A stretch of DNA of 64,000 nucleotides from an uncultured Methanosarcinales archaeon. Lineage in GTDB: Archaea > Nanobdellota > Nanobdellia > Woesearchaeales > ARS49. Made by a program: the position numbers and the translations under genes. A model generated the notes under the pieces. The model ran no database searches. It was not told where the DNA came from and was given only the letters and a program-made list of their open reading frames with translations. The DNA lies in assembly GCA_964617195.1 (NCBI GenBank), contig CAZTVK010000019.1:225019-289018 (forward strand), read 5' to 3'. Positions within the stretch are counted from its first letter, which is position 1, and the number at the start of each line of letters is the position of its first letter. Below are positions 6,465 to 44,543 of this stretch, piece by piece.

Positions 6465-7867
6465 AACGAAACTATTCGCTCTACATAATTCTCGCTCTAG
6501 CATTAATCATACGCCTCATCTTTGCATTCTCATGGCACGAAGTCTGGTGGGACTCAGGAGTCTACATCGGCATGGGAAAACACCTGTATTCTGGAGGAGA
6601 AAACGGGCTATGGGAACACATACGCCCACCACTCCTACCAATAATGCTAGGCTTCCTATGGAAAACAGGCCTTTCACCAATACTCTTCGGAAGACTATTA
6701 GAAATAATATTCATGCTAGGCACAGTCTGGCTGACATACGAACTCGCATTACGCTGGTTTGAAAACAAAACAGCAATCATCGCATCACTTATCATCGCGC
6801 TCAGCCCAATATTCTATTATCTCAGCTTCCACCAATACAACGAAATCCCAAGCACATTCTTCGTACTACTCGCAATCTGGCTCTCACTCAAAGAAAAACA
6901 TTTCCTCGCAGGAATCTCAACAGGAATAGCATTCCTATCAAAATTCGCACCAGGAATGTTCGCAGGAATAATCATACTCTATCTCGCCATCAACAAAAAA
7001 TGGAAACCAACAATACTAACAGGAACAGGATTCGCAATAATAACATCACCCTACTTCATCTACAGCTGGATAGCATATGGAAGCCCGCTCGCAACCTTTT
7101 CAGCAGCACAAGACGCCATTGCTAACGTACTCGGCTGCAACGTATTACGCCACCAGCCATGGCACCAATACTTCTCATGGCTAATATTCAGCGAAACAAA
7201 ACTACACCTTCTAGCCATCATCGGCATATTCGCTCTTTACAAAAAATGGAAAAAACAACACTTACTATTTGTTTTCAGCTTAATCATACCATTGCTATAC
7301 TTCACACAACTCAACTGCAGAGACTACCGATACATCACACTCTTCCTGCCATTTGTTGCCATACTCACAGCACTAGGCATTGCCTGGATATACGAACAAT
7401 TCAAAGTAAAGAAGAACTTGGCATTTGTTATACTCACCATTCTCTTATCAGCATGGATGCTTAACACAACAATCAGATATTACTACGCAAATGAACTCCA
7501 ACAACCAGACACAACAGCAGAAGAATACTTCCACTATCTCTCAGACAAAAACATTACAGGAGAAATCTGGACAGCAAACCCAATTATTGCAGCTTACACT
7601 GACGAAAAACTTGAGAAAATCTATTATCCGGTCTATGACCAAGACGTGCAGAATAGATTCATTGATTACGTCACACTACATAATAAAAAAATCGGCGCAG
7701 TTCTCCTCGACAATTGCGGAGGAGGAATAATTTGTCCTTCTGCTGACCAGAATTGCTTGCAAAAAACAGAACAACTCATCAATCTTCTCGACAAAACATT
7801 CACAAGAACATTCGACAAACAAACAGGAAGATGCTGGTACAGAGTCTGGCTCATTTCTTCAGATTAA
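6461..7867 (+). CDS. GT-C glycosyltransferase, PMT/ArnT-like (GT39/GT83-like), dolichyl/polyprenyl-phosphate-sugar dependent
   Basis: 468 aa; multi-TM; first-loop motif HEVWWDSG resembling PMT DE(V)HFG motif; C-terminal soluble domain similar to the two upstream paralogs. Confidence 0.6.
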   Translation: MKRNYSLYIILALALIIRLIFAFSWHEVWWDSGVYIGMGKHLYSGGENGLWEHIRPPLLPIMLGFLWKTGLSPILFGRLLEIIFMLGTVWLTYELALRWFENKTAIIASLIIALSPIFYYLSFHQYNEIPSTFFVLLAIWLSLKEKHFLAGISTGIAFLSKFAPGMFAGIIILYLAINKKWKPTILTGTGFAIITSPYFIYSWIAYGSPLATFSAAQDAIANVLGCNVLRHQPWHQYFSWLIFSETKLHLLAIIGIFALYKKWKKQHLLFVFSLIIPLLYFTQLNCRDYRYITLFLPFVAILTALGIAWIYEQFKVKKNLAFVILTILLSAWMLNTTIRYYYANELQQPDTTAEEYFHYLSDKNITGEIWTANPIIAAYTDEKLEKIYYPVYDQDVQNRFIDYVTLHNKKIGAVLLDNCGGGIICPSADQNCLQKTEQLINLLDKTFTRTFDKQTGRCWYRVWLISSD

Positions 7868-8294
7868 TAATATCCCCGATAGTCAAAGGACCAGAAGTCT
7901 TCTTCGCAGCCTCGGCCTTTTCCTCCTCCTCAATCTCAACCAGCTTAATCTTCAACGATCTCTCCAATTTCTTCGCCAAATCAATAGGCGGAACAAACAA
8001 ATCACTCTCCAACTTGTGAATCATGCTCTCTTTCTCATTCAACTTCAAAGCAAACTCCTTCTGCGTCATCCCAGACTTCTCGCGAGCAGAACGAATCCTT
8101 TGCGCATAATCAGACACGACAACCTCAGAAGGCTCAACAGCCTTCTGGACCTGAGAACTCTTAGCAGCATGCATCACAGGCTTCTGGAGCATCTTGCCAT
8201 ACTTACCACACGCAGCGCAAACATTCAGCTCAGAGCCTTCCACTTTCGCGCGAAACAGTTCTGTCTCCTTACCGCACAACTCACAAACAGTCAT
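7851..8294 (-). CDS. mbf1: Archaeal multiprotein bridging factor 1 (aMBF1): Zn-ribbon + HTH_XRE
   Basis: 147 aa; N-terminal C-x2-C…C-x2-C ribbon, HTH (TQKEFALKLNEKESMIHKLE), acidic/Lys C-terminal tail; TATA ~25 nt upstream on minus strand. Confidence 0.75.
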   Translation of the reverse strand: MTVCELCGKETELFRAKVEGSELNVCAACGKYGKMLQKPVMHAAKSSQVQKAVEPSEVVVSDYAQRIRSAREKSGMTQKEFALKLNEKESMIHKLESDLFVPPIDLAKKLERSLKIKLVEIEEEEKAEAAKKTSGPLTIGDIINLKK

Positions 8295-16538: not shown

Positions 16539-16939
16539 AAATTCGTAACCATGCCATTAATCTTCTTCTCAATATCATGATAACTAAGCTTGGCAAGCTT
16601 AGCAGAACGAATACGCTCTCTCACTGAAGCCAAAAACTTAGCCAGCCTCTCCTGCACCAAATCCTCCTCCTGCTTAATGCGCAACACCAAAGCACCAGCC
16701 AAAGGATGATCATCAAGAGAAGACTCCTTATGTTGCTCCTTCAACTTAGTCCTAATCTCAGAAAGCATATCCATCGCCTGCTTTCCAGGATCAGTAATAG
16801 AAAACTGCTTAACCAAAGCCTTCTCCTTACCATCACTAAACACAACTCTGACCTTCACCTGGTCAAGCTGAGAATAATAATCAACAATATCAACCTTCTT
16901 AAAGTCAACATCTACTGCTTTCATGTTCCCAATGGTCAC
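16535..16939 (-). CDS. Hypothetical protein
   Basis: 134 aa ORF with own TATA (atttatatag) ~25 nt upstream on minus strand; no recognisable motifs. Confidence 0.45.
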   Translation of the reverse strand: MTIGNMKAVDVDFKKVDIVDYYSQLDQVKVRVVFSDGKEKALVKQFSITDPGKQAMDMLSEIRTKLKEQHKESSLDDHPLAGALVLRIKQEEDLVQERLAKFLASVRERIRSAKLAKLSYHDIEKKINGMVTNF

Positions 16940-20267: not shown

Positions 20268-20341
20268 GGGAGTGTAACTCAGCCCGGGAGAGTACACCGC
20301 TGAAGACGGTGCTGTCGCTGGTTCAAATCCGGCCACTCCCA
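20268..20341 (+). tRNA. tRNA-Phe (anticodon GAA)
   Basis: 74 nt cloverleaf: acceptor GGGAGUG/CACUCCC, D-loop with GG, anticodon stem CACCG/CGGUG with loop CUGAAGA, T-loop UUCAAAU, discriminator A; CCA not encoded; oligo-T follows. Confidence 0.9.
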
Positions 20342-38552: not shown

Positions 38553-38670
38553 TTGAGTTGTTTAGACGCTATAATCTTATAAATTTATCGAAGCTAACAC
38601 CTCTTAACTCAACGAAAACTATATATACTACGCCGTAGGCTAAATTAATGTAACAAAAAAGGTGGGTTTG

Positions 38671-39300
38671 ATGCTGCAAAAAATAAAAAAATTCTTCACA
38701 AATTTCTTTGGCGGAACAAAACAAAACTTCAAACTCGGACTTTACGGACCACCAAACTCCGGCAAGACAACACTCGCAAACAAAATATGCATTGATTGGA
38801 CAGGAAAAGAAATGGGCAAAGTGAGTCCAGTAGCCCACGAAACTAGAGAAATCGGAGTAAAAGAAAACGTCACCATCAAAAGTAAAGATGGAAAAGAACT
38901 CATGTTCTCACTTATCGACACGCCTGGCATCGCAACAAAAATCGACTATGAGGACTTCATGAAAGCAGGAATGTCAGCAGGCCAGGCAAAAAAAAGAGCA
39001 AGAGAAGCAACAAAAGGAGTCATCGAAAGCATCAAATGGCTTGACGAAGTAGACACAGTAATGGTCGTGCTTGACGGCACACAAGACCCATACTCACAAG
39101 TAAATGTCACGATCATCGGCAACCTGCAGGCAAGAAACATACCAGTGCTCATCGTGGCAAATAAAGCAGACCTGAGAAAGTGCAAAGTCAAAAAAGTCCA
39201 ATCAGCTTTCCCACAATACGAAGTTCTAGGAGTAAGCGCCAAATACGGCAAAAATATCGACAAATTATACGAAAAACTATTCGAGCTCGCGAGAAAATAA
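38671..39300 (+). CDS. Small GTP-binding protein (MMR_HSR1/EngB-like)
   Basis: G1 GPPNSGKTT, G3 DTPG, G4 NKAD; likely ATG 38671 (ORF-track start 38662 is GTG). Confidence 0.75.
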   Translation: MLQKIKKFFTNFFGGTKQNFKLGLYGPPNSGKTTLANKICIDWTGKEMGKVSPVAHETREIGVKENVTIKSKDGKELMFSLIDTPGIATKIDYEDFMKAGMSAGQAKKRAREATKGVIESIKWLDEVDTVMVVLDGTQDPYSQVNVTIIGNLQARNIPVLIVANKADLRKCKVKKVQSAFPQYEVLGVSAKYGKNIDKLYEKLFELARK

Positions 39301-39301
39301 A

Positions 39302-39727
39302 ATGGTAACAATACAATTCGTACCCTACACGGAAATCGAAGGATTAACCGGACTCGGCAGGATCAGAAAACTCCTTAACATAGCAAAGATGAACAAAATA
39401 GTATTGCTCCAAGGACGCTTAAGAAAAGAAGAAGAAGCAGAACTAATCAAAACAACAATGGAAGAAATCGACAAAAAATTCAAAGGCATAGAACTCGCAG
39501 TAATCAACCCATCACAAACAGCGCAAGATGGTCTGCAAAAATTCAAATACGACCTTCTAGGATTATTCCTGGGAGAAAGCCAAGGCCTCACAATCATCGG
39601 ACCATCAAACATAGTCAAAAGCATCAAAAAAGATCCGAACAAAATAGAACTGCTCACATCGGAGGTATCGGCAAAAAGATTCGCCGGAACTTCCTCTTAT
39701 AAGTCGGAGGCGCGCAAGCGCAAATAA
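39302..39727 (+). CDS. Conserved archaeal protein of the GTPase-associated pair (DUF2073-like)
   Basis: 141 aa; immediately after the GTPase stop; conserved gene-neighbourhood in archaea. Confidence 0.45.
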   Translation: MVTIQFVPYTEIEGLTGLGRIRKLLNIAKMNKIVLLQGRLRKEEEAELIKTTMEEIDKKFKGIELAVINPSQTAQDGLQKFKYDLLGLFLGESQGLTIIGPSNIVKSIKKDPNKIELLTSEVSAKRFAGTSSYKSEARKRK

Positions 39728-39729
39728 CA

Positions 39730-40110
39730 ATGCCGCACCAGTGCGTCAGATGCAGCATCTTCTATGAAGACGGCGCAAAAGAAATCCTCAAAGGATGCCC
39801 ATGCGGAGCAAGACTCTTCTTCTTCATAAGAAAAGAAAAACTCGAAGCGGCAAGGAAAGTCCTCCCAACAGAACTGCCACCAGAACAGAAAAAACAAATA
39901 GAACAGGACGTCCTGAACTTAGTAGGATACACAGAAGACACGCCAGTAGTATTAGACTTTGAAAGCGTCAGAGTAGTCGAGCCAGGCAAATACGAGCTAG
40001 ACCTAGTGCAATTATTCAAAGGAGCACCATTAATATTCAAGCTCGAAGAAGGAAAATACGTTATAGATATAGTGGAAAGCTTCGAACGGTTACGAAAACC
40101 TAAAAAGTGA
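39730..40110 (+). CDS. Zn-ribbon protein (C-x2-C…C-x-C) of the same conserved triad
   Basis: 126 aa; HQCVRCS…GCPCG motif. Confidence 0.5.
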   Translation: MPHQCVRCSIFYEDGAKEILKGCPCGARLFFFIRKEKLEAARKVLPTELPPEQKKQIEQDVLNLVGYTEDTPVVLDFESVRVVEPGKYELDLVQLFKGAPLIFKLEEGKYVIDIVESFERLRKPKK

Positions 40111-41019: not shown

Positions 41020-41940
41020 TTATTCCTCGTCAATAACAAGCCTGGCAACATTATTCGTCAAAGTCACCATAGTCCTGAACAATTCAGAAACGCCAGGGGG
41101 CAATTCTCCAGCTTCCTTCAGCAAATTCTCACGCTGCAAGGCAACACCATCAGCCACTTTCTTATCACGAGTAAAGTACGCCTTCATGACGTCCAAATAA
41201 CTCTTCTCAACCTTCTGAAGAACACCCTTAATCTTATCCTTCTTCTTCTCCTTAACCAAATAATCAGCCAACTGCTTAGCGCAATCAGCATAATTCTCCA
41301 GATTAATAGTCAAGTAATAGTAGCTCAGCACTTTATCGTTCGACAACTGGAAAAAGTCAGCAATCTGCTTATTCCGCAAAGAACTCTTCAACAAACGCAT
41401 CAACAAGAAGTAAGCACGATTAACCTCATAATCGCGAACAAAAACACTCTGCGCCAACTCAGCATTATCCAGAGAGCCAATACCGTCCTGAATCATGCTA
41501 CGCACAAGCATATCCATCCTGCGCAACGTCTTATCAATGCTGATTTCCTTCAAATTCAACAAGTCCTTAGCAACAATGCTGTTAGTAGTCTGGTCAGCAA
41601 CCTCCAACGCCACAAAATCGTGCAACATCTTCCGAATATCCTTAGTAAGCCTAGTCACACTCTGACCATTCAGAATAATAGTGTTGTAATTGTTGATATA
41701 CGCGCTAGTAATCTCGCGCTGAATAGTACTCAACTCCTTATCGTCAACAGGAATAGTAATCTCCTTCTGAGGCACCTGTTCATCCGCCTTACTTTCAGGA
41801 GTTATAGTGAGCTCCTTATCACCTTTCTCGTACAAATACACCAAATCGCCTTTCTTCAATTTATGACGATCAAGCCATTCTTTAGGAAGAGAAATCGTAT
41901 GCGAAGCCTGTCCTGCCTTAACCAGTCTACGAATAATCAT
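41020..41940 (-). CDS. Transcriptional regulator: AbrB/SpoVT swapped-hairpin DNA-binding domain fused to PhoU-like domains
   Basis: 306 aa; N-terminal MIIRRLVKAGQASHTISLPKEWLDRHKLKKGDLVYL (AbrB/MazE-like), remainder helical PhoU-like repeats. Confidence 0.7.
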   Translation of the reverse strand: MIIRRLVKAGQASHTISLPKEWLDRHKLKKGDLVYLYEKGDKELTITPESKADEQVPQKEITIPVDDKELSTIQREITSAYINNYNTIILNGQSVTRLTKDIRKMLHDFVALEVADQTTNSIVAKDLLNLKEISIDKTLRRMDMLVRSMIQDGIGSLDNAELAQSVFVRDYEVNRAYFLLMRLLKSSLRNKQIADFFQLSNDKVLSYYYLTINLENYADCAKQLADYLVKEKKKDKIKGVLQKVEKSYLDVMKAYFTRDKKVADGVALQRENLLKEAGELPPGVSELFRTMVTLTNNVARLVIDEE

Positions 41941-42019
41941 GTGTTCACCTTTTTAGTCGTACTATCGTACTTATGATACCATAAGTATATATAAATCTTT
42001 TGCCATGATAAATTTGATA

Positions 42020-42260
42020 CTGGCGTATCAGAAACCGCGAGGTTTCTGAGTACTCTCGGAATTCTGGCGAATTCCGAAGTATCACAACAACACGCAACGA
42101 AAGTTGCAGCATCACTCACAGGGCAGGTCTCAAAGGCCTGCCACTTCAAACTCATGCCAAGGAAACTCGCAGAATTTCCTGGTCATCAAAAATCGTGATT
42201 TTCAATGCAAACCCCCCAAAACAAATTGGCGCACCCCCACCTTTTTCTAGCGCCAATTAA
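42020..42260 (+). ncRNA. Candidate structured non-coding RNA or structured 5' leader (seven consecutive hairpins)
   Basis: Hairpins at 42028-42049 (9 bp, GCGA loop), 42057-42076 (8 bp), 42094-42107 (GAAA loop), 42122-42142, 42157-42182, 42188-42202, 42225-42257; TATA box 41986-41996 ~25 nt upstream; 5' tggcg and 3' cgcca could close the domain. Confidence 0.35.
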
Positions 42261-42272
42261 AACCGAGCTAGA

Positions 42273-43361
42273 ATGAACACTATCACAAACCCACAAACGC
42301 TTGAACGAGTCGACAATTTTCTTAGAAACATCACCAAACAAGACAAAATATGCATAATACACGACACAGACCCAGACGGAGTATGCTCAGCAGTAATAAT
42401 GGCGAAATGCATAGAACGCCTGCACGGAAAGAAAATAGACGTGAGAATTCCACTCGACAAAAAACAATACGGAATAACAGATAAAATGATGAAAAAAATT
42501 AAATCAAAAAAAATAACCAAGCTCATAACAACAGACTTCAGCGCAGAACACAACATACCAGTCCTGAAAGAAATAGAAAAACAAGCAGAAATACTCGTCG
42601 TCGACCACCACAAACTCTATGCAGACTACAAAAGCGACAAAACAATACTCTACAAACCACAATATTTCACAAACATAGAACCAAGCACCTATTGCACGGC
42701 CAAACTCGCATACGACGCAGCAAACAGAATGGTCGACGCAAAAGACTTGGACTGGGTAGCAGCAACAGCATGCATCGCAGACATCGCCACAGCACCCTGG
42801 AAAAAATGGCTATCAAACGTTTTCAAAAAATACAAAGTAAAAATGAAAAAAGAACTCTTCCAAACAGAAATCGGACAAGTAGCAGCCACAATCAGCAGCA
42901 CAGAAGTCTATGATGTCAAGCTCGTCCCACAATGCTATGACGTCTTCTATAAAGCAAAAAAGCCAAAAGACATCCTCACATCAAAACTAGGCAAGTACAA
43001 AAAAATAATCGACAAAGAACTGAACAAAAACCTTGTCCTATTCGAGAAAAAAGCAGAAAAACACAAAGAACTGCGCATCTATGAACTAGTTTCACCCTAC
43101 AGAGTCCACTCACCACTCAGCACAATCCTAGGACTCAAACACCCACACAAAACAGTCATAATCATTAACAAGACAGGAAACCCAATATCAGTCAGCGCCA
43201 GAAGACACGACAGAAAAATAGCAGTCAACAACCTGCTCGAAAAAGCGATCAAAGGTTTCGCAGGAGCAAACGCCGGCGGGCATGCACCAGCAGCAGGAGC
43301 AGGCTTCCACAAAAAATACTTATCAACATTCAGAAAGAGGCTCATACAATGGAACCAATGA
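42273..43361 (+). CDS. DHH-family phosphoesterase (NrnA-like nanoRNase/pAp phosphatase)
   Basis: 362 aa; motif I HDTDPDG, DHH motif VVDHHK, DHHA1-like C-terminus GGHAPAAG. Confidence 0.7.
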   Translation: MNTITNPQTLERVDNFLRNITKQDKICIIHDTDPDGVCSAVIMAKCIERLHGKKIDVRIPLDKKQYGITDKMMKKIKSKKITKLITTDFSAEHNIPVLKEIEKQAEILVVDHHKLYADYKSDKTILYKPQYFTNIEPSTYCTAKLAYDAANRMVDAKDLDWVAATACIADIATAPWKKWLSNVFKKYKVKMKKELFQTEIGQVAATISSTEVYDVKLVPQCYDVFYKAKKPKDILTSKLGKYKKIIDKELNKNLVLFEKKAEKHKELRIYELVSPYRVHSPLSTILGLKHPHKTVIIINKTGNPISVSARRHDRKIAVNNLLEKAIKGFAGANAGGHAPAAGAGFHKKYLSTFRKRLIQWNQ

Positions 43362-43457
43362 AAGTCGGAATGGCAGTAGCAAGCATAATTGTCGTAATGG
43401 CAATATTCGCAAGCATGCTTATCTTGAGCGGCAGATTTGTTTTTATCACGTGAACTC

Positions 43458-44543
43458 ATGAAAGTTCTAATATATTCTGGCAGCAACTGGAACGGACTGT
43501 GGTCGCACAGCCATGAACTTGCAAAATATTTTGCAAAACACACCAAAGTAATCTTCCTCAGCGTGCCATCCTGCCAAGACCCAGCACATCCAAACATAAG
43601 CAAGAAAACAGAATATCCAATACCGAAGAACACAACAGTCGTATTCTCAGACAAAGTATTCCAAAAATACACGCTACTGTATCTCATCTACACACAGTTC
43701 TACACTATAACAAAGTTTTTCTCCCTGCCAAAAGCAGAGCACTTCTTCCTCTACAACACATACGACATCCCATTCTTCATACTGGCAAAGATTTTCGGCA
43801 AGAAAGTACACTTTATGTACATAGACGATTACCCGGCACTCGCAAAGCACCCACTCCTCAAAGCAATCGCCACAATCGGAACTTGGCTATTCCTCAAATT
43901 CAGCAAAGACGTATTCTGCACGGCCAAAGTTCTCGAGCAAAAAGCAAGACTACACAATGACGAAGTCTACTACGTACCAAACTCGGTAAATCTGGAAGAT
44001 GCAAAGGATATTCGCCCCAAAACAAGAAAAGAATTCATCATAGGATTCGTAGGCACAATAGGGCACTGGGTGAGAACAGACCAAATACTCGACATAGCAC
44101 GCGCATTCAAAGACGCAAAAATATGGATAGTGGGATCAGGAGAAGGGCTTGCAACACTGCAAAAACACAAAAAACAAGAAAACCTAAAAAACCTAGAACT
44201 CTTCGGATTCGTATCCCATCAAAAAATGTACGAGCACATGTCCCAATTTAACATAGCCATAATCCCGTTCTACATAAACGAGATAACAAACGCAGTATCA
44301 CCAATCAAACTATTCGAATACTGGCTTGCAAAAAAGCCAGTCGTGTGCACGAAAACAACAGAACTCGCACAATTCAAAGGCGAAGTGTTATATGCAAACA
44401 AGAGCGAAGAATTTATTAAACAACTCAGGATGCTTAAAAACAATTCCAAACAAAGAAAGAAGCTGGCAGAAAAAGGATACAGTCTGGTAATGGAAAAGTA
44501 CAACTGGAACAAAATGATAGAGGTTTACCAAAAAGCACTATGA
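43458..44543 (+). CDS. Glycosyltransferase family 4-like
   Basis: GT-B C-terminal domain with EX7E-like block (EITNAVSPIKLFEY); ATG 43458 (ORF-track start 43437 is TTG). Confidence 0.7.
   Translation: MKVLIYSGSNWNGLWSHSHELAKYFAKHTKVIFLSVPSCQDPAHPNISKKTEYPIPKNTTVVFSDKVFQKYTLLYLIYTQFYTITKFFSLPKAEHFFLYNTYDIPFFILAKIFGKKVHFMYIDDYPALAKHPLLKAIATIGTWLFLKFSKDVFCTAKVLEQKARLHNDEVYYVPNSVNLEDAKDIRPKTRKEFIIGFVGTIGHWVRTDQILDIARAFKDAKIWIVGSGEGLATLQKHKKQENLKNLELFGFVSHQKMYEHMSQFNIAIIPFYINEITNAVSPIKLFEYWLAKKPVVCTKTTELAQFKGEVLYANKSEEFIKQLRMLKNNSKQRKKLAEKGYSLVMEKYNWNKMIEVYQKAL

Follow-up and report, generated by a model that had tools for sequence, protein, structure and literature searches.

The window, by which we mean the whole 64,000-nucleotide (nt) stretch of contig CAZTVK010000019.1 (archaeal assembly GCA_964617195.1, of metagenomic origin) analysed here, contains a 332-nt spacer (41941-42272) between two divergently oriented genes. 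The minus-strand gene (41020-41940) encodes an AbrB/MazE-type domain and a PhoU domain (AbrB-PhoU), and the plus-strand gene (42273-43361) encodes DHH and DHHA1 domains. A first-pass annotation gave the coordinates and sequence of this spacer as we find them. It described a TATA box followed by seven successive hairpins, too densely structured for a simple spacer, that could be an independent non-coding RNA or a regulatory leader of the DHH gene. Here we follow up the structured element in this spacer by comparison with related loci.

All seven hairpins are present. Three are perfect inverted repeats of 9 base pairs (bp), at 42028-42049 (loop GCGA), 42056-42077 and 42224-42258 (17-nt loop); the loop of the second is UGGC and not a GNRA tetraloop. 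The hairpin at 42157-42182 has 8 bp (3+5) with one bulged A, and that at 42189-42202 is weak, consisting of five A-U pairs only. An eighth hairpin that had been overlooked lies at 42015-42030 (UGAUAC-UGGC-GUAUCA) and overlaps the next by 3 nt. The plus strand of 41997-42272 folds at -86.6 kcal/mol, compared with -57.9 +/- 4.7 kcal/mol for dinucleotide shuffles (z = -6.1); for the minus strand, z is -3.8. In the 64-kb window, only six distinct perfect hairpins combine a stem of 8 bp or longer with a loop of 3-8 nt, and three of these six fall inside the 110 nt of 41968-42077 (the remaining ones are at 8126-8147, 16584-16602 and 44320-44341). The hairpins are genuine, and their density is far above chance. 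The GC content of the region (0.46 vs. about 0.43 for the window) is not notably high.

Approximately 100 homologues of the DHH protein were found, and the named ones all belong to Candidatus Woesearchaeota. Protein-anchored searches yielded 14 distinct syntenic loci (DHH identity to the window 88%-54%), in which the same divergent AbrB-PhoU/DHH pair flanks a spacer of about 210-395 nt, and a fifteenth, more distant and GC-rich locus (L004, DHH identity 43%), in which the same pair flanks a spacer of about 795 nt with about 550 nt inserted within the element. The order of blocks in these spacers is a promoter block, a hairpin (H1), the motif AACAC, a second hairpin (H2), a linker (GCAUCACUCACAG), a third hairpin (H3), an ACUUUA block on the 3' side of H3, a variable stretch, a C-run block (AUGCAAACCCCCC), a fourth hairpin (H4), about 14 nt, CUAG and the DHH start. 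The element lies directly upstream of the DHH gene, which is recJ-like (see below), in all 15 loci, and a covariance model of it (R1), searched against about 300 kb of related loci and the window, finds exactly one copy per locus and no credible match anywhere else. The sole extra match in the window (6742-6871, E=0.02) falls inside a 468-amino-acid (aa) open reading frame (ORF) and was rejected as chance. On this comparison, the element is single-copy, structured, clade-specific and conserved across woesearchaeotal (DPANN) loci.

The hairpins that recur among relatives are H2, H3 and H4, together with the overlooked H1; the other four in the window are lineage-specific insertions, so that only about half of the window's hairpins belong to the family. 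H1 (42015-42030, plus strand), with an invariant UGGC loop, occurs in nine of the 15 loci, and its family form is GUGAUAC-UGGC-GUAUCAC. H2 (42094-42107, plus strand; GCAAC-GAAA-GUUGC, with a GNRA cap) is identical in nine loci, while L020 has GCAGC-CCA-GCUGC, in which an A-U pair is replaced by G-C, and L006 has a 7-bp form. Of the 14 loci that contain the single-stranded linker GCAUCACUCACAG (42109-42121, plus strand, 13 nt), 11 have it unchanged; it carries one substitution in L019, is shortened in L006 and L004, and survives as only a degenerate trace in L020. H3 (42122-42142, plus strand; GGCAGGUC-UCAAA-GGCCUGCC) is the best-supported helix, with 8 bp including one U·G in the window, and takes the form GGCAGGUC-loop-GACCUGCC in relatives, with the loops UUCG, GCAA and CUUGC. 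The C-run block (42205-42217, plus strand) is conserved across loci, and we tentatively suggest that its AUGC pairs with GCAU of the linker, enclosing H3. This lower helix has at least 4 bp in 11 of 14 loci and appears with 3-5 bp in the minimum-free-energy folds of L010, L003 and L019; it shows no covariation and is not individually significant. H4 (42224-42258, plus strand) has the arms AAUUGGCGC and GCGCCAAUU around 17 nt, and in relatives the form AAUUGGCGC(G)-CCCCAAACUUAUUCU-(C)GCGCCAAUU.

In the compact members of the family (L019, L007, L008, L010 and L003), the predicted start and the end of H4 are about 110-150 nt apart; the version in the window, at about 200-245 nt, is among the two most expanded. 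Four of the window's hairpins lack a counterpart in most relatives. The first (42028-42049, plus strand, 9 bp with a GCGA loop) overlaps the 3' arm of H1, and L002 alone has a similar hairpin (GAAAACC-GCAA-GGUUUUC), at a different position. The second (42056-42077, plus strand, 9 bp) is found only in the window and can be lengthened by GUACU/AGUAU to 42051-42082; it repeats the loop and closing pair of H1 (C-UGGC-G), within a direct repeat (D1; ATACTGGCGTAT / ATTCTGGCGAAT). The other two (together 42157-42202, plus strand) are absent in all compact relatives. Neither these extra hairpins nor any other hairpin of the element recurs elsewhere in the window or across some 300 kb of related loci, so the four are lineage-specific expansions of a conserved core, and not dispersed palindromic repeats or miniature inverted-repeat transposable elements.

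An automatic covariance-model alignment (A4) misaligned the insertion-bearing loci (the window, L006, L014 and L020) and inflated the pair counts of H1 and H2; it was replaced by curated helix arms, which were aligned by hand with loops substituted by fixed placeholders. In the curated arms, 94% of cells are paired, compared with only 24-37% when partners are slid by 1-3 columns as a control. Changes on both sides of a pair number 10; shuffles give 4.3 +/- 1.4, and 10 was reached in 0 of 500. The clearest example is H3: it reads GGUGGGCC/GGCCCACC in L019 and GGGACGGUG/CGCCGUCCC in L004, with four positions fully compensated, so that three lineages differ at four positions and pairing is retained. 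H1 changes from G-C to A-U in four loci and has a plus-strand G·U in three others. The covariation check proposed with the annotation thus found compensatory changes in H1-H3.

The same helices indicate the strand. One H3 position alternates between U-A and U·G, and pairs on the plus strand only. Among the wobbles in H1-H3, six are readable on the plus strand vs. two on the minus strand, and both of the latter are at terminal stem positions. The relatives' loops UUCG, GCAA, GAAA and CUUGC are stable RNA loops on the plus strand, and fold z-scores are stronger on the plus than on the minus strand in four loci. Taken together, the compensatory changes, the plus-strand G·U pairs and the UUCG/GNRA loops lead us to conclude, from comparative evidence, that H1-H3 and the linker form an RNA-level element on the plus strand. 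The idea that this is no simple spacer is thus borne out: the covarying helices mark a true plus-strand RNA element whose structure is conserved. Identity is 61-87% in the conserved blocks, vs. 40-67% at third codon positions of the adjacent gene, and the blocks are evidently under purifying selection. No conserved ORF is present in the spacer on either strand across loci. A small ORF or leader peptide was rejected as a candidate; in the window, AUGCAAACC opens a 23-codon frame that ends in an AUGA overlap with the DHH start, and this frame is broken in L002 and L003.

H4 behaves differently from H1-H3. Its core, GGCGC/GCGCC, does not vary among the loci, and double changes are seen at two flanking pairs but are symmetric, so an RNA stem and a DNA operator are not separable on this evidence. 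H4 is kept in L020, where H1-H3 have decayed. It may serve an RNA as its 3' hairpin, bracket the DHH promoter as a palindrome, or do both. The second option arises from the H4 loop, which contains a T-rich octamer (CTTTTTCT in the window; CTTATTCT in most relatives, with CCAAA before it) and, more broadly, a candidate B-recognition element (BRE) and TATA box for the DHH gene (cccacc-TTTTTCTA, 42236-42249, plus strand). From the end of the octamer to the DHH ATG (42273-42275) there are 24 nt in the window and 23-30 nt in most DHH genes. A CUA lies 20-26 nt past the octamer in 10 of 14 loci, regardless of the distance to the start codon, and in the window the CUAG at 42268-42271 is the predicted leaderless transcription start site (the two features span 42268-42275, plus strand). 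Most DHH genes of these loci lack a Shine-Dalgarno (SD) sequence. In many genes of this genome, a TTTAWAAA-type box ends about 22-23 nt ahead of the ATG, which marks them as leaderless, and a minority of window genes (38671, 40270, 41940) have leaders bearing a GGTG-type SD. From the octamer geometry, the CUA and the missing SD, the DHH gene probably has its own leaderless-type promoter inside the H4 loop.

The TATA box reported in the annotation is real, and its sequence, TATATATAAAT, is identical across the 14 syntenic loci. It forms part of a 27-nt promoter block (41979-42005, CCATAAG-TATATATAAAT-CTTTTGCCA) that is predicted to act on both strands. Among the 14 syntenic loci, the 12 closest share an identical block (CCATAAGTATATATAAATCTTTTGCCA), and L019 and L020 have 2-4 substitutions flanking TATATATAAAT. 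The TATA box is palindromic (TATATATA), with a BRE-like GCAAAAG on its minus side and CCATAAG on its plus side. The better BRE is on the minus-strand side and certainly fits the AbrB-PhoU gene; the upstream TATA is probably bidirectional, driving both this gene and the RNA. Start-site geometry was borrowed from divergent gaps of the window that are served by one palindromic TATA. It places the predicted minus-strand start near 41965, giving a 25-nt AbrB-PhoU leader with AGGTG, and the predicted plus-strand start at 42016-42019, about 23 nt past the TATA and exactly at the 5' arm of H1. One such gap, at 836-895, is about 58 nt long, and its palindromic TATA (TTTATAAA) must serve two leaderless genes, an arrangement that this genome uses routinely.

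Between the TATA and the AbrB-PhoU start, outside the RNA, lies a direct repeat (41957-41971; gtCGTACtatCGTAC) of the form CGTAC-N3-CGTAC (gtcgtactatcgtac), which is present in 14 of 14 loci and is a likely candidate for an autoregulatory operator of the AbrB-PhoU regulator. An 8-bp perfect palindrome at 41968-41987 (TACTTATG-ATAC-CATAAGTA) overlaps the plus-side BRE and occurs only in the window.

The reading that we favour ties the element to the recJ-like gene, as a clade-specific small RNA or as a regulatory transcript made upstream of it. That the spacer encodes a structured, plus-strand, clade-specific small RNA we regard as about an even bet, and ahead of any rival considered below; of the hallmarks of an independent small-RNA gene, conservation of structure is seen and a promoter (the palindromic TATA with BRE-like sequences on both sides) is plausible. 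Under this reading, transcription would start about 23 nt downstream of the palindromic TATA that also drives the divergent AbrB-PhoU gene, and the RNA would end at or within H4, whose loop would double as the BRE/TATA of the leaderless DHH mRNA. Stable hairpins capped by GNRA or UUCG loops would scaffold and protect the RNA, and the invariant unpaired CA-rich and C-rich segments (GCAUCACUCACAG; CAAACCCCCC) could form a functional surface for a protein or a G-rich RNA partner. The ACUUUA stretch, facing the linker across the possible short GCAU/AUGC helix, may also belong to this surface. Synthesis of the RNA would probably also modulate DHH expression in cis, because the transcript runs into the DHH core promoter.

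Several points weigh against this small-RNA reading. Both the transcription start site and the 3' end of the RNA are predictions from DNA sequence, and T5 runs are found in some loci only, either in the H4 loop or after H4. H4 and its loop may be purely DNA-level features (a promoter and a palindrome), which would shorten the RNA. The covariation statistics come from 15 distinct sequences of one clade, with few independent events. The strict adjacency to DHH fits a cis-acting leader as well as an independent small RNA, and in L004 the H3/H4 part stays with the DHH gene, about 550 nt from the promoter-proximal hairpins. A trans target was also sought for the C-rich H4 loop and C-run among SD regions of the GTPase gene that heads the nearby oapB/oapC cluster, and was rejected. 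In the window, the H4 loop (CCCACCUUUUU, 42236-42246) and the SD region of this gene (38656-38666) show perfect complementarity over 11 nt, and a different H4 loop in L019 (CCCCUCCUCUUU) pairs with 12 nt of that locus's own, different GTPase SD region; a match is missing in six of 10 loci, and the mean complementarity is 7.5 nt within loci vs. 6.7 nt across loci. The complementarity may be a compositional coincidence.

The strongest rival, which we hold to be possible but distinctly less probable than a small RNA, is that the element is a cis-regulatory 5' leader or attenuator of the recJ-like DHH mRNA, transcribed from the upstream TATA, in which H3 with its internal-loop sequences and H4 with a U-tract control read-through or translation, possibly through a ligand or protein. 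The element abuts DHH in 15 of 15 loci, and L004 keeps the linker, H3 and H4 beside DHH despite the 550-nt upstream insertion. L003, L012, L014, L015 and L004 (T7) have a U-rich tract after H4, but this tract is missing in six loci including the window. In principle, the 3' arm of H4 could pair with the UGGCG of the H1 loop in place of its own 5' arm, but the UGGCG/CGCCA pairing comprises only 5 bp, vs. 9-10 bp for H4, and is missing in L002 and L019. The annotation had suggested that the same two segments could close a terminal helix. This is not supported, as the 5' UGGCG is the H1 loop, the 3' CGCCA is an H4 arm, and L019 and L002 keep H4 without H1; as a family feature the helix was rejected, with both sides invariant and no covariation. 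A leader would further have to accommodate the leaderless geometry in the H4 loop (octamer, CUA, no SD), by which DHH seems to own a promoter located between the structure and the start codon. The start codon is not sequestered, no riboswitch model matches, and the element is a string of simple hairpins, with no multi-helix junction or pseudoknot typical of aptamers. Of the annotation's readings, that of a structured RNA element is supported, and that of a leader is weakened by the gene's apparent own promoter.

A bolder version, which we put forward as speculation, is that the element represents a new archaeal class of functional RNA devoted to the RecJ/Cdc45-like DHH nuclease in DPANN lineages, serving either as a leader that senses a ligand or protein (a new riboswitch-like class in archaea) or as an RNA that partners or regulates the nuclease. 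The invariant GCAUCACUCACAG/ACUUUA internal loop around H3 would then act as binding pocket.

It is also conceivable, though we think it unlikely, that no functional RNA is made and that the conserved blocks are promoters and operators acting at the DNA level for the AbrB-PhoU regulator or another factor, the palindromes being protein sites. A divergent regulator gene with conserved CGTAC repeats by its promoter would suit this explanation, as would the H4 arms, which flank a promoter-like loop, vary only symmetrically and survive in L020 where H1-H3 are degenerate. The TGGCG motif, in addition, recurs in varied contexts: in the H1 loop, in the H4 arm, as a reversed palindrome in L006 and unpaired in L020. 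By our own reckoning, though, the H4 half-sites lie 25-26 bp apart from centre to centre, or about 2.5 turns, which is awkward for a simple dimer. Protein sites also do not account for H3, whose sequence is wholly changed in L019 and L004 with complementarity kept, for the covariation of H1 and H2, or for the RNA signatures (the strand-specific U·G/U-A alternation and the UUCG, GNRA and CUUG loops). A DNA-level reading explains H4 and the recurring TGGCG, but not H1-H3.

A highly divergent housekeeping or guide RNA (RNase P, signal recognition particle (SRP), H/ACA or C/D) missed by Rfam models would be single-copy, densely structured and driven by a strong promoter, as here, and DPANN lineages are known for divergent RNAs; we nevertheless consider this very improbable. 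The Rfam search proposed with the annotation matched no model to the spacer or to two compact orthologues. In the window, the sole match to Rfam 15 at gathering threshold is a tRNA (20268-20341); at E<=10 the spacer gives chance matches to unrelated families, the best at 19.8 bits vs. a cutoff of 50, and gathering-level and permissive scans of the compact orthologues L010 and L019 gave nothing credible. No RNase P, SRP or H/ACA model is among the matches at E<=10 in the spacer or in either orthologue. The compact forms consist of only 2-4 simple hairpins in about 110-150 nt. For RNase P RNA (types A, M and T), the conserved regions CR-I (GGAAAGUCC-like) and CR-V (ACAGAA..GGCUUA-like) are absent from the conserved blocks, as is a P4-type pseudoknot. 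For SRP RNA, H3 forms a perfect helix of 8-9 bp whose loop varies freely, and there is no long helix, helix-8 GNAR motif or asymmetric loop. The boxes of C/D small RNAs (RUGAUGA and CUGA) are not conserved: there is no conserved CUGA, and L019 is the sole locus with UGAUGA after H3, while L008 and L013 have near-matches and AUGCAAAC takes its place elsewhere. A SNORD48 match on the minus strand scores 14.8 bits vs. a cutoff of 36. An archaeal H/ACA RNA would require a pocket, a kink-turn and an ACA box; H3 with the tentative GCAU/AUGC helix gives a stem-internal loop-stem, but its apex is a plain variable tetraloop without a kink-turn, and the 3' trinucleotide is AAA or ACA, inconsistently among loci.

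Least probable of all is a part of a replication origin, with repeats resembling origin recognition boxes and C/G strings by the 'origin-associated' oapB/oapC cluster and a RecJ/Cdc45-like gene: the neighbouring genes do carry PF09845 and PF09846 (OapC/OapB) and there are two tandem units of C-string, about 12 nt and GCGC, but an AT-rich unwinding element is lacking, the neighbouring genes do not include orc1/cdc6, the cumulative GC skew is monotonic across the window, and RNA-type covariation is present. Similarity to phages was also sought; blastn gave no match, and a pattern scan of viral contigs with the linker and the start of H3 gave 0 matches.

In L004, the element (2236-2960) is split: about 550 nt separate the promoter-proximal hairpins, which include CGGAAC-GAAC-GGUUCCG and a UGGCG-containing stem, from the linker, H3, C-run and H4, and the T7 run lies beyond H4. 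Within the insert is a possible 88-aa ORF that has no match in Pfam.

Regarding the downstream gene, its product had been taken for a phosphoesterase of the nanoRNA/pAp/c-di-AMP type. This assignment is not supported: the best family-level matches of the DHH protein are RecJ-type (all below curated cutoffs), its best solved relatives are Pyrococcus RecJ (5x4h), Thermococcus GAN (5ghr) and bacterial RecJ, and it is closest to RecJ/GAN-type nucleases and not to NrnA or GdpP. A 34-aa hydrophobic ORF (MEPMKVGMAVASIIVVMAIFASMLILSGRFVFIT; 43349-43453, plus strand) overlaps the DHH stop; it has no Pfam match, a 34-residue gene occupies this place in nearly every related locus, and its product is probably a small membrane protein, conserved and translated together with DHH. 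On the other side of the AbrB-PhoU/recJ-like pair, a cluster of genes for a GTPase (MMR_HSR1), OapB (PF09846) and OapC (PF09845) lies upstream (about 38671-40110) and recurs in all related loci. It adjoins genes for a HerA-like DUF87 protein and an Mre11-like metallophosphatase, which gives the neighbourhood a replication/repair flavour, with no orc1/cdc6 in view.

Almost no non-coding RNAs apart from rRNA, tRNA and introns are described from DPANN archaea, and in the literature on Woesearchaeota and DPANN we found none of a comparable kind. The present candidate offers covariation, a genomic anchor (recJ-like DHH and AbrB-PhoU) and a series from a minimal form of about 110 nt to an expanded one of about 245 nt, which marks the essential core. 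It also illustrates how regulation may be packed into one spacer, in which a single palindromic TATA appears to fire both ways and a second core promoter appears to lie within a conserved palindrome. Should the RNA control the nuclease or act as its partner, reduced archaeal genomes would offer a link between regulation by RNA and functions in DNA replication or repair; a clade-specific small RNA and nothing more would add a further motif to the catalogue.

Among known systems, the Hgc/SscA RNAs of AT-rich hyperthermophiles (Rfam RF00058-RF00064) are archaeal intergenic small RNAs that were found by structure and composition. The element in the window is similarly small, hairpin-rich, intergenic, limited to a narrow clade in an AT-leaning archaeal genome and, by prediction, promoter-driven, but it matches none of them in sequence or structure, its host belongs to the Woesearchaeota, and it is tightly linked to one gene. 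RsaE/RoxS-type small RNAs of Firmicutes are regulatory RNAs with C-rich motifs; they, too, have stable hairpins and expose conserved C-rich motifs in unpaired form, to which mRNA segments that are G-rich or SD-like could pair. Since they come from a different domain of life, share no homology with the element and have no counterpart here in conserved complementarity, this is an analogy only. Leaders upstream of DHH-family phosphoesterase genes, such as the c-di-AMP ydaO class, resemble the element in being structured, conserved RNAs directly before a DHH/DHHA1 gene, whereas here there is no riboswitch match and no junction or pseudoknot, the gene looks leaderless, and the protein is RecJ-like. 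Lastly, repressor operators that overlap BRE/TATA are a general principle of archaeal transcription regulation, and the H4 arms could be compared to them as an inverted repeat bracketing a BRE/TATA-like sequence, at -48 to -14 of the predicted DHH start. The half-site spacing of H4, at about 2.5 turns, is atypical for such operators, and H4, if transcribed, also folds as an RNA hairpin of 9-10 bp.

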